64,000 nucleotides of DNA, from contig JAJDNP010000091.1 in assembly GCA_022340645.1 (NCBI GenBank), positions 1,673 through 65,672 on the forward strand. Direction: 5' to 3'. Position numbers and translations under genes: made by a program. This document shows, in pieces, positions 7,473-53,090 of the stretch; within the stretch, counting starts at the first letter, position 1; every line of letters begins with the position of its first letter. The DNA comes from Gammaproteobacteria bacterium. GTDB lineage: Bacteria; Pseudomonadota; Gammaproteobacteria; SZUA-229. Below the pieces are notes generated by a model, which saw only the letters and a program-made list of their open reading frames with translations, did not search any database and was not told the origin of the DNA.

Positions 7473-7548
7473 GTCCGCGAATAACGCGAAATGCGCAAAT
7501 AAAACTTTTTTATTTTTAGTATTCGCGTGTTTCGCGTTATTCGCGGAC
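7473..7548. repeat. Unit-array hairpin, GTCC class (unit CGCGAAT)
   Basis: Left arm is GTCCGCGAATAACGCGAAATGCGCAAAT (7473-7500). Right arm is ATTCGCGTGTTTCGCGTTATTCGCGGAC (7521-7548). The outer 19 bp are perfectly complementary. The arms have a 9-bp internal period. Confidence 0.85.
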
Positions 7549-7595
7549 AAAATTTTTGAGTTTTATTTTTTTAATTAAGGTTTGGAGATATAAAA

Positions 7596-8597
7596 ATGAC
7601 TATTAAAGTCGGTATTAACGGTTTTGGCCGTATTGGGCGCATGGCTTTTCGTGCTATTGCAAAAGACTTCCCTGGTATTGAAGTTGTAGGTATTAATGAC
7701 CTGCTGGACGCTGATTACCTGGCTTACATGCTGAAGTACGACTCAGTACATGGCAATTTTGCTGGTGATATAGCTGTGGAAGGTAATAACCTGATCGTAA
7801 ACGGCAAGAAGATTCGCCTGACCGCGGAACGCGATCCTGCTAACCTGAAGTGGGGCGACATCAATGCTGATCTGGTTATTGAATGTACCGGTTTCTTCCT
7901 GACCGAAGAAAGCTGTCAGAAACACATTGATGCAGGCGCGAAGAAAGTGGTTCAGTCTGCGCCTTCCAAAGACGGTACACCGATGTTCGTCTACGGCGTT
8001 AACCATGAAACCTATGCCGGCCAGGCGATTGTTTCTGCTGCTTCCTGTACTACTAACTGCCTGGCGCCTGTTGCTAAAGTTATCAATGACAAATGGGGCA
8101 TCAAGCGCGGCCTGATGACAACTGTTCATGCAGCAACTGCTACCCAGAAAACGGTTGACGGTCCTTCGATGAAAGACTGGCGCGGTGGCCGTGGTATTTT
8201 AGAAAATATCATTCCATCATCAACTGGTGCAGCAAAAGCCGTGGGTGTTGTACTGCCTGAACTGAATGGCAAACTGACCGGTATGGCTTTCCGTGTACCA
8301 ACCTCCGACGTATCCGTTGTTGACCTGACGGTTGAGTTAAACAAGGAAGCTTCATACGCAGATATCTGTGCGGCAATGAAAGCAGCTTCCGAGTCTGGCG
8401 ATATGAGTAAAACTCTGGGCTATACCGATGAGAAAGTGGTTTCAACCGACTTCCGTGGTTGCGGTTTCTCTTCAATCTTTGATGCAGAAGCCGGTATTGC
8501 ACTGGACGGTACTTTTGTGAAACTGGTTTCATGGTATGACAATGAGTACGGTTACACCTGTAATATGCTTCGCTTTGTAGAACATGTCTCTAAATAA
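7596..8597 (+). CDS. gap: Glyceraldehyde-3-phosphate dehydrogenase
   Basis: 333-aa ORF with INGFGRIGR and the active site SCTTNCLAP. Confidence 0.97.
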
Positions 8598-8601
8598 GTT
8601 A

Positions 8602-8720
8602 TAAGCGGATCTTTTTTCCGATTACGGCGTTGCGGAAATAATTTGAGTGCTCACGTACTATTGTACGCTCCGCGTCTCAAATCATTCCCGCGCCTTGTAC
8701 TCGAAAAAAATCTCTCACTT
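8602..8720. repeat. Long imperfect inverted repeat downstream of gap
   Basis: The two ~55-nt arms (8602-8657 and 8663-8720) are roughly 75% complementary by eye. An example is TTTTTTCCGATTACGGCGTTGCGGAAATAATTTGAG against CTCAAATCATTCCCGCGCCTTGTACTCGAAAAAAA. Confidence 0.6.
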
Positions 8721-8740
8721 ATAAATGAGATATACAAATA

Positions 8741-8780
8741 CCAGCCCAGTTAATTTTTACATATTAATTAACTGGGCTGG
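8741..8780 (+). terminator. Stem-loop after gap (possible terminator)
   Basis: A perfect 15-bp stem pairs CCAGCCCAGTTAATT (8741-8755) with AATTAACTGGGCTGG (8766-8780). The T tail (TGTCTTT) is weak. Confidence 0.5.
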
Positions 8781-8873
8781 TGTCTTTAAAAACAAGTATT
8801 GTTTGTTAAGTATTCAAATTAATTTAACAAACCATATTTAAAATAATTAAGTAACAATTTTGGAGTTTTAGTC

Positions 8874-50791: not shown

Positions 50792-51849
50792 TAACGGCCA
50801 CCCCTGCTGCTATGTTCATCGCTGTCCTCCCTGACCTGTTCAACTTCAGGTTCCCTCCCCAGGGTCATGGTCATAACTGCCATGCGTACCGATATGCCAT
50901 AAGATACCTGGTCAAGTATTACAGAACGTGCGCCATCGGCCACGCTTGAGTCAATTTCAACACCGCGATTAATTGGCCCGGGGTGCATCACAATAACGTC
51001 ACTTTTTGCCAACTGCAATCGCTCTTCAGTAAGGCCGTATAGCTGAAAATATTCATGCTCACTGGGCAGCAGGGCGCCTTGCATACGTTCTTTTTGCAGG
51101 CGCAGCATGATGACCACATCTGCATCTTTAATGCCCGTTTTTAAATCATGGAAGACTTTCACTCCCATGTTTTCAATATCAACCGGCAGTAATGTTTTGG
51201 GTGCAATAACGCGCACATCGCCGGTATTTAAAATATTTAGTGCATGTATTTGTGAGCGTGCAACGCGAGAATGTAAAATGTCGCCGACGATGGCAACTCG
51301 CAGATTGCCAAAGTTTGTGCCTTTTTTTCGACGGATGGTAAACATGTCCAGCATCGCCTGTGTTGGATGCGCGTGGCTGCCGTCACCGGCATTAATCACG
51401 CTTATGTTGGGCGCCACATTATTTGCAATATAATGCGCTGCACCTGAATTACTATGCCGCACAACAAACATGTCACAGTGCATCGCCTGAATGTTTTGCA
51501 GGGTATCGAGCAGCGACTCACCCTTTGAAGTGGCCGATGTTTTTGTATCGACATTTAGTACATCGGCAGACAGTCGTTTTGCCGCTAATTCAAAAGTGGT
51601 GCGTGTTCTTGTGCTGGCTTCGAAAAATAAATTAACAATGGTTTTACCACGTAACAGCGGAACTTTTTTAACACGTTTTTCATTGATGTCGGCAAAGCTT
51701 TCAGCGGTATCGAGGATTTGTGTCAGGATTTCTGTGCCCAGACCTTCGGTGGTAAGAAAATGTTTTAAATGTCCGTTTTTATCTAATTGAATATTCCAGG
51801 TATCACGCCCTATTAATGTGTCTGTAGGTTTTGTTGCCTTGTTTACCAT
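50791..51849 (-). CDS. pyrB: Aspartate carbamoyltransferase catalytic chain
   Basis: 352-aa ORF with [13 protein letters not shown] and HPGPINRG. Confidence 0.95.
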
Positions 51850-51855
51850 GAAAGC

Positions 51856-52410
51856 TTAATCCCTGGGGTTCTCCCGTAGCGCGTTATGCGGCGTATTTTT
51901 TTGTAATTCAAATGCCAGAGGTTCCGGGCCGGTTAGTTTGATGTGCTCACCTTCCTGTAGTGAAATGTGATCGCCTATGATGTCTGCCTGTAAAGGCAGC
52001 TCACGGCCGCTGCGCTCAATGAGACATGCCAGCGTTATGCTGGCAGGACGGCCGTAATCGAATAATTCATTCATCGCTGCCCTGATTGTGCGGCCGGTAT
52101 GCAAGACATCATCGACCAGAATAATATGGCGGTCTTCAACATCGGGGGGTAGCTTTGATGGTTTTACCTTTGGATTCATACCGATGCGTGAAAAATCATC
52201 CCGGTAGAAACTGATGTCCAGTGTTGCCAGAGGTTCGGTAAACACGGGCCTGGAAAGATTAAGTTGTTGATAGAGTTTGCTGGCTACCCAGACACCGCCG
52301 GTCTGAATCCCTACCATTAATGGATTTTCAATCGCCTTGTCAGCAAGCAGTGTCTCTATCTGTTTTGCCATTTTTGCCAGAAGTTCATCTGGTGTGGCTA
52401 GCTGTTGCAT
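51856..52410 (-). CDS. pyrR: PyrR (pyrimidine regulator / uracil phosphoribosyltransferase)
   Basis: 184-aa ORF with the PRPP-binding motif ILVDDVLHTGRT. Confidence 0.9.
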   Translation of the reverse strand: MQQLATPDELLAKMAKQIETLLADKAIENPLMVGIQTGGVWVASKLYQQLNLSRPVFTEPLATLDISFYRDDFSRIGMNPKVKPSKLPPDVEDRHIILVDDVLHTGRTIRAAMNELFDYGRPASITLACLIERSGRELPLQADIIGDHISLQEGEHIKLTGPEPLAFELQKNTPHNALRENPRD

Positions 52411-52540
52411 AAAATCCCGTTGCTGTAAGCAGTACTGTTGTTTATTAATCAGTTTCTCGGCAATAGCCTGCGGGCAATCACGCCTGTATTACGCATATGC
52501 GTTAATAAGTGTGTCGATGCACTGTCCTGTTACTATTCTT

Positions 52541-52963
52541 TCATGGACTATGCTGGTCCAGCCAGCGTTGCACGATAATTGCTGCAGCCATTTTATCAAT
52601 CTCGTGTTTGTTGTGCTTGTTTATTTTCATATTTGTTTTAAGTAATTCTTCGGCCTGTTGGGAGCTCAAGGTCTCATTTACCTCAATAACCGGCAATTTA
52701 AACCGCTTTTCCAGCTCATAACAAAACTGCCGCACTGCCGATGTCATCTGGCTTTCGCTGCCGTCGGTATAATAAGGTATGCCGACAATTAATGCCTGCG
52801 GTTTCCACTGCTTTATTTCAGCTTCGATAGCAGGCCAGTCCGGGTTGCCATTCACCTGGCTGATTGTTTTGCAAGGCGTGGCCGAATTGGTGATGGTCTG
52901 GCCGGTGGCAATGCCGATACGTTTTTTGCCATAGTCGAAGCCCAGGACACTGGTGATTTTCAT
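52541..52963 (-). CDS. ruvX: YqgF/RuvX putative pre-16S rRNA nuclease
   Basis: The ORF track extends to 53026. The internal ATG at 52961-52963 (MKITSVLGFDYGKKRIGIA) matches the family N-terminus and avoids the hairpin at 52999-53090. Confidence 0.88.
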   Translation of the reverse strand: MKITSVLGFDYGKKRIGIATGQTITNSATPCKTISQVNGNPDWPAIEAEIKQWKPQALIVGIPYYTDGSESQMTSAVRQFCYELEKRFKLPVIEVNETLSSQQAEELLKTNMKINKHNKHEIDKMAAAIIVQRWLDQHSP

Positions 52964-52998
52964 GAGTACGACATTGCAAAAACGTAAAAGATTTATTG

Positions 52999-53090
52999 GT
53001 CCGCAAATGAACGCAAATTGACGCAAATTTTAAAAATATTTAAAAAGTTCAGTAATTTGTATTTGGGTTTATTTGCGTTCATTTGCGGAA
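52999..53090. repeat. Unit-array hairpin, GTCC class (unit CGCAAAT)
   Basis: Left arm is GTCCGCAAATGAACGCAAATTGACGCAAATT, with a 10-bp period. The right arm ends TTATTTGCGTTCATTTGCGGAA. The outer 19 bp are perfectly complementary. Confidence 0.85.

Follow-up and report, generated by a model that had tools for sequence, protein, structure and literature searches.

The stretch analysed here, referred to as the window, comprises 64,000 nucleotides (64 kb) of a gammaproteobacterial genome (assembly GCA_022340645.1, contig JAJDNP010000091.1, positions 1,673 to 65,672), and its spacers contain hairpins whose arms are built from tandem short units. An earlier reading of this DNA, the original prediction, had listed 16 such loci and treated them as one phenomenon divided into classes. 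All 16 were found on reading the sequence, with arms at or within a few bases of their predicted positions, and the composition of the arms from tandem short units was borne out. They are, however, four different things: arms of the GTCC and CAGAG classes (nine loci), inner doublets of repetitive extragenic palindromes (REPs), a stem-loop between gap and pgk, and the remaining palindromes. The idea of a single phenomenon was therefore abandoned, as the inner hairpins belong to a system of REPs and REP-associated tyrosine transposases (RAYTs) and the hairpin at 8602-8720 is a conserved structured element. The main subject of this study is the group of GTCC and CAGAG arms and their relationship to genes of the GxxExxY family, an association that the original prediction had not foreseen.

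Four hairpins belong to the GTCC class. The hairpin at 7473-7548, between tkt and gap, represents a 9-bp subtype (GTCC GCGAATAA CGCGAAATG CGCAAATA) with arms of 29 nt that are 90% complementary and a fold z-score of -9.1, all z-scores of hairpins being calculated against 200 dinucleotide shuffles. Two others are of the ACAGAT subtype: 13173-13369, with 10-bp units, arms of 33 nt (97% complementary), a 131-nt loop and a spacer z-score of -9.8, and 15949-16073, with arms of 37 nt (95% complementary; z = -12.5), which starts 5 nt past the stop codon of a GATase gene. The fourth, at 52999-53090 between an AlgH-like gene and ruvX, is of a GCAAAT 10-bp subtype, with arms of 29 nt that are 90% complementary (53000-53089; z = -7.9). 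The longest open reading frame (ORF) of ruvX (52541-53026, minus strand) has its TTG start within an arm of this hairpin; as the Pfam RuvX match begins at residue 26, the real start lies downstream, about 40 nt past the hairpin. Hairpins of this kind thus give rise to spurious ORF calls and wrong start codons.

The CAGAG class comprises five loci. Two are simple hairpins, one between convergent genes at 25083-25152 (z = -6.7) and one at 30966-31069 with the arm TTAAC ACAGAG x3 (z = -4.8). The other three loci stood as predicted, but their structure had to be revised, since they are nested, with CAGAG arms placed around a separate family of inner hairpins. At 22554-22730 the outer arms (TACCGCAGAGGCACGGA) enclose a REP doublet in a spacer with z = -15.4. 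At 27158-27333 sequence reading gave three units in one arm and two in the other around the doublet at 27210-27281, and at 44131-44298 the right arm is degenerate and the doublet occupies 44185-44249. An identical metagenome contig (L145) carries this last locus; here and below, L-numbers label the compared loci and contigs, which totalled about 1.3 Mb when copy searches were made.

These hairpins are a real, non-random feature of the window, and chance was excluded as their source. The 14 longest inverted repeats of the window are all intergenic, and the GTCC arm pattern was matched by six arms where 0.01 were expected. Six arms of the window were picked up by a crude search for tandem arrays that have an inverted partner, and 20 Markov simulations yielded no such case. 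Ten hairpins showed fold z-scores of -4.4 to -12.5, and among the 37 spacers of at least 40 nt, all those with z below -3 belong to loci that had already been listed. The reported lack of hairpins between 44.3 and 52.9 kb and after 53.1 kb was likewise confirmed, the spacers at 44.9-52.4 kb and beyond 53.1 kb having z-scores near 0. The arms also passed the test of complementarity set beforehand in the original prediction, their in-register identity being 0.87-0.97, compared with 0.43-0.83 when the same units were permuted. We also agree that the hairpins are not ordinary terminators: their stems are 25-35 bp long and AT-rich, and any T-rich stretch starts 4-5 nt away. A canonical terminator, with a GC stem and a T-tract, follows fba at 12750-12775, and its position is kept in L052, L055, L129 and L174-L178. 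As it is kept in all relatives, this lineage uses ordinary terminators beside the tandem-unit hairpins.

Arm grammar, distribution and placement

A genome scan with one genome per species, in which the unit letters of the arm pattern were left free, returned the pattern in at least 120 stretches. Among the matches listed, most are from Gammaproteobacteria, both sulfur-oxidising and other (Thiodiazotropha, Thiodictyon, Lamprocystis, Thiotrichaceae, Salinisphaera, Rhodanobacter, Nevskia); the matches listed also include isolates of the cyanobacteria Xenococcus and Hyella, and metagenome-assembled genomes of Planctomycetota, Verrucomicrobiota, Acidobacteriota, Treponema (Spirochaetota) and Tannerella (Bacteroidota). 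A GTCC arm consists of GTCC followed by three, at most six, decamers of the form NAAC-RC-N-RAT, with GCNAAT and RCRGAT as the main subtypes beside a 9-bp variant. Nearly all matches are paired in inverted orientation at distances of 42-530 bp, GTCC being outermost, and the smallest copies measure 55-62 bp. Arms of the CAGAG type (RC-N-RAG, period 8-9) were found in the same genomes, likewise as inverted pairs, and in L086 they lie outside a GTCC pair. The two classes have in common a core, C-RC-N-RA-K, with about three units per arm at a spacing of 8-10 bp, and sharp arm termini, which are GTCC or else (T/A/C)ACC / CTC. Arms are about 30 nt long and partners are on average 85% identical. A single arm is an array of three direct repeats without internal pairing, and no conservation of loop sequence was found between the GTCC pairs compared.

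Several variations on this arrangement were observed. Tandemly amplified arms form dense clusters, resembling those of bacterial interspersed mosaic elements (BIMEs), at L090 5865-6356, L104 56-2071 and L013 191-1357, and L090 contains six left arms at a 43-bp period. In the Thiodictyon plasmid pTs485 (L173 1168-1192 and 10131-10156), CTCAC-GCAGAG arms point towards each other with their outer termini, at a distance of 24 nt, which is the reverse of the usual order. In Salinisphaera shabanensis (L043 1264-3165), a GTCC arm pair surrounds 1.9 kb between ligD and ku, including a Phd/PIN toxin-antitoxin pair and a 256-aa membrane protein; loops can therefore carry cargo.

With regard to the relationship between the two arms, the original prediction had proposed that the unit changes from locus to locus while partner arms co-vary. 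Each unit was found to represent a widespread subfamily and not a locus-specific invention. In an arm-to-arm comparison of 95 distinct GTCC arm pairs from many genomes, partners agree at the subtype-defining positions in 84-96% of cases, compared with 53-62% expected. The free unit position N fails to pair in 21-37% of copies, with partner agreement varying between none and a weak excess over expectation. Covariation by locus was thus not supported, as agreement is limited to the subtype-defining positions and the free position lacks consistent compensation. The arms are complementary because both are copies of one conserved end sequence, and not through compensation in each copy.

The period, which had been equated with one helical turn, is 10, 9, 8-9 or 7 bp depending on the subfamily, and face-specific binding to B-DNA is therefore not a general property of these arrays. 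The suggestion of a DNA-binding protein is retained without its face-specificity, since a sequence-specific protein is a better explanation of the arms than RNA pairing alone. The arm strings searched for did not occur in the literature library except as chance primer matches, and were absent from PMC3733652 and its supplements. A search of the window against Rfam 15 gave, besides tRNA, matches below threshold only, namely eukaryotic microRNA-precursor models on the hairpins and a plastid 5' untranslated region model on the opposite strand of a tRNA. Integron attC sites were rejected, as the arms have no RYYYAAC / GTTRRRY cores and end on the outside in GTCC/GGAC or ACC/GGT. The consensus sequences of DnaA boxes, IHF, CsrA, LexA, MraZ, attC and dif showed no evident fit to the units.

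The arm pairs behave as discrete, acquired units. A 168-bp element with 96% identity occurs in unrelated flanks in L047 and L060, and a composite CAGAG element was found at three loci where homology begins precisely at ACCACAG. In ten syntenic relatives the orthologous spacer may be empty or may hold another subtype or another class. The 7473-7548 hairpin, for instance, is missing from the tkt-gap spacer of five of six syntenic relatives, and L174 has another GTCC subtype there. The spacer of 13173-13369 contains a different GTCC subtype in L177 and none in the others, and the position of 15949-16073 is occupied by a CAGAG hairpin in L124 and by none in L128. L128 has a plain terminator only in place of 22554-22730, and carries an orthologous hairpin of the same class at 25083-25152, its loop holding extra nested elements.

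Target-site duplications were not detected: relative to shuffled partners, direct repeats were not in excess when the flanks were compared at offsets 0-7 or at any similar offset as far as 32 nt. Candidate direct repeats at window 15953 (ATAGTTTT), L060 (TTGATC) and L010 (TCAAGGG) were not above this control. Extension of the palindrome into the flanks showed a weak excess (399 matches versus 351 ± 15). For exact insertion borders no suitable relatives were found, the nearest sharing about 80% nucleotide identity and the others being conspecific at 99.5-100% without polymorphism. The spacer type could be classified for 63 of the 95 GTCC pairs, 26 of which lie in convergent, 33 in tandem and 4 in divergent spacers; all spacers of the same loci number 64, 204 and 60, respectively. 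GTCC elements therefore favour the 3' ends of genes. The arm had no match in 2.9 million viral contigs, which gives no indication of phage origin, and was present on one of 72,556 plasmids, within a cob operon, so that an origin from plasmids or insertion sequences was rejected. Clustering of 1,399 neighbouring ORFs revealed no recurrent protein family and no adjacent transposase.

GxxExxY genes between the arms

Among the ORFs of unusually long loops, a 129-aa GxxExxY protein was found in L098 (PF13366, E = 9e-41; TIGR04256). A tblastn search of the 1.3 Mb returned four GxxExxY genes, all four touching tandem-unit arms. In L098 and L107 the gene fills a GTCC loop; in L061 (Planctomycetota) complete GTCC hairpins flank it on both sides, and in L138 it is followed by a CGCAGAG hairpin. 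All close homologues are located between carA and carB, where a GxxExxY gene lies within GTCC arms in six gammaproteobacterial lineages. The four beyond L098 and L107 are Thiodiazotropha, Endothiovibrio, Thiosymbion and a metagenome contig (L179, L182-L184). These six cases are one old orthologous insertion, in which the arms have stayed near-identical although the protein has diverged to 60-70% identity. The gene-to-arm distance is 0-10 nt on both sides of bracketed GxxExxY genes: in L179 the ATG lies 9 nt past one arm and the stop codon 5-6 nt ahead of the other, and in L182 the start codon is inside the arm. As we read it, the full element is a cassette of about 0.45 kb consisting of an arm, a GxxExxY gene and an inverted arm. 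In Ca. Thiosymbion oneisti (L183 681-843), a second GTCC arm pair directly follows the cassette, and all that its loop retains of the gene is a degenerate stretch from the 5' end, about 60 nt long. Gene-less arm pairs can therefore arise from gene-containing ones.

For independent loci in other phyla, we looked at five GxxExxY genes on plasmids or chromids. In Bernardetia (L190), the gene fills the loop of AACACAGAG arms (28 nt, 86% complementary) in the spacer between ade and a mannose-1-phosphate guanylyltransferase gene. In Sphingomonas (L189), it lies between fabD and fabG within TTCAC-GCGAAGG-CGCGAGGA arms (25 nt, 92% complementary), and the C-terminal tail of the protein is encoded by the arm. 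Arms of 16 nt containing CACGGAT were found on both flanks of the gene in Treponema, and a complete (CGCGGAT)x3 hairpin adjoins it in Gemmatirosa. The Persicobacter gene has no evident arms. Several GxxExxY genes were seen to occupy very short spacers within operons of core metabolism (carA-carB, fabD-fabG and the L190 locus).

The encoded proteins, of 125-145 aa, belong to Pfam PDDEXK_3 (PF13366) and have an intact D...ExK triad of the PD-(D/E)XK type. The G-x-x-E-x-x-Y motif and residues D67, E77 and K79 are invariant in nine proteins from five phyla. A sequence search returned no relative in the PDB. The family (PF13366 / TIGR04256) has been entered as "function unknown, multiple transfers" (PMC3424549).

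The GTCC and CAGAG hairpins of the window were shown to share their termini and unit grammar with the arms that bracket GxxExxY genes. The 52999 arm (GTCC GCAAATGAAC GCAAAT...) equals the arms of L098, L179 and L184, and its GCAAAT subtype also brackets GxxExxY genes in L107 and L182. In addition, the terminus and unit of the 30966 hairpin (AACACAGAG) are equal to those of the L190 arms.

Origin of the GTCC and CAGAG hairpins

We propose that the GTCC and CAGAG hairpins of the window are gene-less miniature copies of arm-GxxExxY-arm cassettes, a reading to which we assign a probability of roughly 55%. The data suggest that these cassettes constitute a previously undescribed family of selfish DNA elements. 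The GxxExxY nuclease would recognise the unit arrays and promote the copying of arm pairs, with or without the gene, to new spacers. The copying would follow a homing-like or cut-and-repair route without duplication of the target. Copies would then survive selection mainly at gene 3' ends, and the loops would afterwards collect REPINs (REP doublets) and other small elements. The transcribed stems of 25-35 bp would probably act, as a side effect, as 3'-end barriers or RNase III substrates in operon mRNAs. As very stable stems lie within core operons (tkt-gap-pgk-pyk-fba, gsp and gltBD), they are likely to shape mRNA decay. A broader proposal is more tentative and falls somewhat short of even odds: GxxExxY proteins could be the nucleases behind a third superfamily of extragenic palindromes in bacteria, one that crosses phyla, in which each clade recognises its own C-RC-N-RA-K array, and the cassette of about 0.45 kb spreads without target duplication and seeds gene-less hairpins that become landing pads for REPINs and other small elements. 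If the link is true, it would give a role to the widespread PF13366 / TIGR04256 family, explain intergenic hairpins from sulfur-oxidising Gammaproteobacteria to Cyanobacteria and Bacteroidota, and provide a nuclease-based counterpart to the REP-RAYT paradigm.

Several observations weigh against a cassette origin. No GxxExxY gene is present in the 64-kb window or in about 90 kb of loci from its closest relatives. Since the six bracketed carA-carB cases are a single insertion, the independent cases number about six to seven, and one of the five plasmid or chromid genes, that of Persicobacter, stands without evident arms. The loci searched were picked for containing arms, which inflates co-occurrence although not exact bracketing, and copy counts are taken from loci and contigs rather than whole genomes. 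Loops also take unrelated insertions, such as the REP doublets and the toxin-antitoxin pair of L043, and the gene could therefore be a loop-preferring passenger. Most loops share no sequence, unlike those of typical recently amplified miniature elements, and the literature reports no biochemical activity for the GxxExxY family.

The passenger idea leads to the first alternative, namely that a single-strand HUH enzyme, either a RAYT or a Y1 transposase associated with terminal inverted repeats (TIRs), mobilises the arm pairs as elements of a REP/BIME-like kind, and that the GxxExxY gene is a passenger with a preference for their exposed loop. Such an origin would account for the absence of target-site duplications at any offset, for the tandem clusters and dimers of arms (L090, L104) and for loops that demonstrably accept other insertions, and this lineage does contain a true RAYT system alongside them. 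Like the REPs described in PMC3733652, the elements lie outside genes with a bias to 3' ends; in that paper REP dimers nested in outer palindromes and Y1 genes between long inverted repeats are also described. However, the sole Y1 gene in the 1.3 Mb, as judged by tblastn with the RAYT of contig L139, belongs to the GTAG REPs described below, whereas the arms are without a GTAG or CGTC tag and no arm is self-complementary by itself. The spacing of 0-10 nt between gene and arm, together with the start codon (L182) and the C-terminal tail (L189) that fall in an arm, points to an integrated unit rather than a random landing, and three different unit subfamilies each bracket a GxxExxY gene. We consider mobilisation by an HUH enzyme unlikely. 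Less probable still is a role as RNA elements for which the host would retain the hairpins, whether to stabilise 3' ends, to terminate transcription in part or to be processed by RNase III, with a shared functional constraint behind their similarity across taxa. Their stems are very stable (z down to -12.5) and lie 4-20 nt past stop codons in the operons tkt-gap-pgk-pyk-fba and gspE-gspF, convergent spacers are enriched, and the gap-pgk spacer does contain a structural hairpin that genuinely covaries; segmental stabilisation is known from the gap-pgk operon of Zymomonas. Nevertheless, free positions are mismatched in 21-37% of arm copies without consistent compensation, orthologous spacers are usually empty or of a different class, some copies stand after a canonical terminator just ahead of the next start codon, and no Rfam family matches. 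Near-identical 30-mers across phyla also go beyond what pairing explains.

The alternative put forward in the original prediction, in which a host regulator or nucleoid protein would bind one face of the DNA at the unit arrays as at operators, appears very improbable. The main GTCC subtype does have direct repeats at a 10-bp period, and the core C-RC-N-RA-K tolerates N, as protein recognition would. Yet the period changes with the subfamily from 10 to 9, 8-9 or 7 bp, divergent spacers, which contain promoters, are depleted (4 of 63 versus 60 of 328), no neighbouring gene function recurs, and the occupancy of orthologous spacers is not conserved.

The proposed cassettes can be compared with several known systems. 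REP/REPIN-RAYT systems and BIMEs, as described by Di Nocera et al. 2013 (PMC3733652) and Bertels & Rainey 2011 (PMC3116915), resemble the arms in being short extragenic palindromes with inverted dimers, clusters and a 3'-end bias, in lacking target duplication, in having several families per genome and in having a coding master copy flanked by the repeat (the REPtron). In contrast to REPs, the outer arms have no GTAG/CGTC tag, a single arm is a direct-repeat array instead of a small hairpin, and the bracketed gene is a PD-(D/E)XK GxxExxY gene where that of REPs encodes a Y1 HUH transposase; the arms are also shared across phyla, whereas REPs are typically lineage-specific. Of the known systems, the REPtron is the one that the outer arms would resemble most in how they work, the enzyme and the repeat architecture being different. 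PMC3733652 also describes REP doublets nested in an outer palindrome and TIRtrons, moderately abundant inverted-repeat families flanking a small gene; there the outer palindromes differ in sequence and the flanked gene is a tyrosine transposase.

Miniature inverted-repeat transposable elements (MITEs; Correia/NEMIS, ERIC, Nezha) have in common with the arm pairs terminal inverted repeats, a size of 55-500 bp, copies in unrelated flanks and a gene-less derivative formed by internal deletion (as in L183). The arm pairs differ in having no target-site duplication, mostly unrelated interiors, ends made of three short direct units and no DDE transposase, the sole gene found repeatedly within them being GxxExxY. 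Homing endonuclease genes and other free-standing selfish nuclease genes are similar in that a small nuclease gene lies between housekeeping genes without target duplication and has spread across phyla, but classical homing genes have no conserved inverted arms and leave no abundant gene-less arm pairs behind.

REP doublets, heptamer arrays and other palindromes

The inner hairpins are an ordinary GTAG-tagged REPIN-RAYT system, and they have the features by which GTAG-tagged REPs in doublet arrangement are defined in PMC3733652 and PMC3116915. The REP consists of GTAG and an 8-bp stem with a 2-nt loop, GTAG GTTCGAAT TT ATTCGGAC. The doublet at 22605-22680 comprises two inverted copies of GTAGGTTCGAATTTATTCGGAC with arms of 26 nt that are 100% complementary, and those at 27210-27281 and 44185-44249 likewise lie inside CAGAG arms. 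A search for the tag and stem revealed a single copy of the same family at 2238-2259 (minus strand), adjoining tRNA-Met, which brings the window to three doublets and one singleton. The 22-mer has 96 copies in 41 metagenome stretches from marine sediment, mostly as doublets 45-70 bp apart, and was absent from the compared genome loci. In L139, a 149-aa ORF at 5279-5728 encodes a Y1 transposase (Y1_Tnp, PF01797, E = 2.5e-12) with REPs on both sides. The original prediction had anticipated that its finding might reduce to a standard REP/BIME system accompanied by a RAYT; this is true of the inner hairpins, whose cognate Y1 gene is on this related contig. As only about a quarter of the REP doublets lie within CAGAG arms, the two layers are independent. 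At L139 5182-5846, the contig of a related organism, a complete REPtron is placed between gspM-like and gspC-like genes. A further, CGTC-tagged REP-like element (CGTCAT..GAGCGAAGCG..) was observed at window 13218-13320, in the loop of 13173-13369. This family also occurs at L128 7560-7640 and 11760-11850 and at L129 3085-3180, in the loops of GTCC, CAGAG and heptamer hairpins, and has shorter stems and longer loops than published CGTC families.

The heptamer class, the palindrome at 15028-15132 and the hairpin at 32886-32938 lie outside the cassette explanation. The heptamer loci at 10054, 21013 and 42743 are intergenic arrays of 7-nt units of the kind that often abuts a start codon, with three to four units each. 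The pgk/pyk spacer contains a hairpin of RTGAAAA units (10054-10165; z = -6.0); among the compared spacers it is occupied in the window only, and L128 has the same heptamer arm in a different spacer. A single array of TAATAGT-like units at 21013-21040 (plus strand) ends 9 nt before the ATG of gltD; a homologous array is present in L124 (7885-7905), and in L128 this spacer is occupied by a complete heptamer hairpin. The gspE/gspF spacer holds a hairpin of TAGTGAA units at 42743-42870 (z = -6.2), which ends 8 nt before gspF and has a similar arm in L086. Direct heptamer arrays just upstream of start codons were seen at window 21013-21040, in L124, at L058 5829-5956 and at L121 1992-3211; those of L058 include TAACTGR units as in Beggiatoaceae, and many different heptamers were found in the genomes with GTCC arms.

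These arrays resemble the STRR heptamers of cyanobacteria (for Nostoc heptamers, bioRxiv 10.1101/2022.06.06.494920) and the TAACTGA repeats of Beggiatoaceae (MacGregor 2015, PMC4679880) in being intergenic, often upstream of start codons and patchily distributed across phyla. Heptamers of the STRR/TAACTGA type are almost always direct arrays, with one inverted case in 170 sets (PMC4679880), whereas heptamer arrays in the window form inverted pairs.

The palindrome at 15028-15132 has no tandem units, and its arms of 28 nt are 96% complementary (z = -11.3). Its spacer measures 235 nt in the window and 68-81 nt in three relatives; on this comparison of spacer lengths the palindrome is a lineage-specific insertion. 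The divergent spacer at 32886-32938 contains a hairpin of AAGTTAT units with arms of 17 nt that are 100% complementary (z = -4.4). Neither of these, nor the stem-loop at 8602-8720, had another copy in the roughly 1.3 Mb of loci.

The gap-pgk intercistronic stem-loop (8602-8720, plus strand; z = -4.95) is not a repeat. It is conserved after gap across six lineages with gene identities of 77-94%, showing compensatory double changes in 12 of its 40 predicted pairs and almost no broken pairs. This pattern of substitutions makes it a candidate cis-acting RNA element that may serve the differential expression of gap and pgk. It is followed by a terminator-like hairpin (8733-8788, plus strand) that was absent from the earlier list and is kept in relatives, a homologous CAGCCCGG...CCGGGCTGG hairpin being present in L175-L178. 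Three conserved hairpins were observed in the gap-pgk spacer at 8602-8850, as also at L129 2955-3253 and in L174-L176 and L178, and the relatives carry different small repeats between them.

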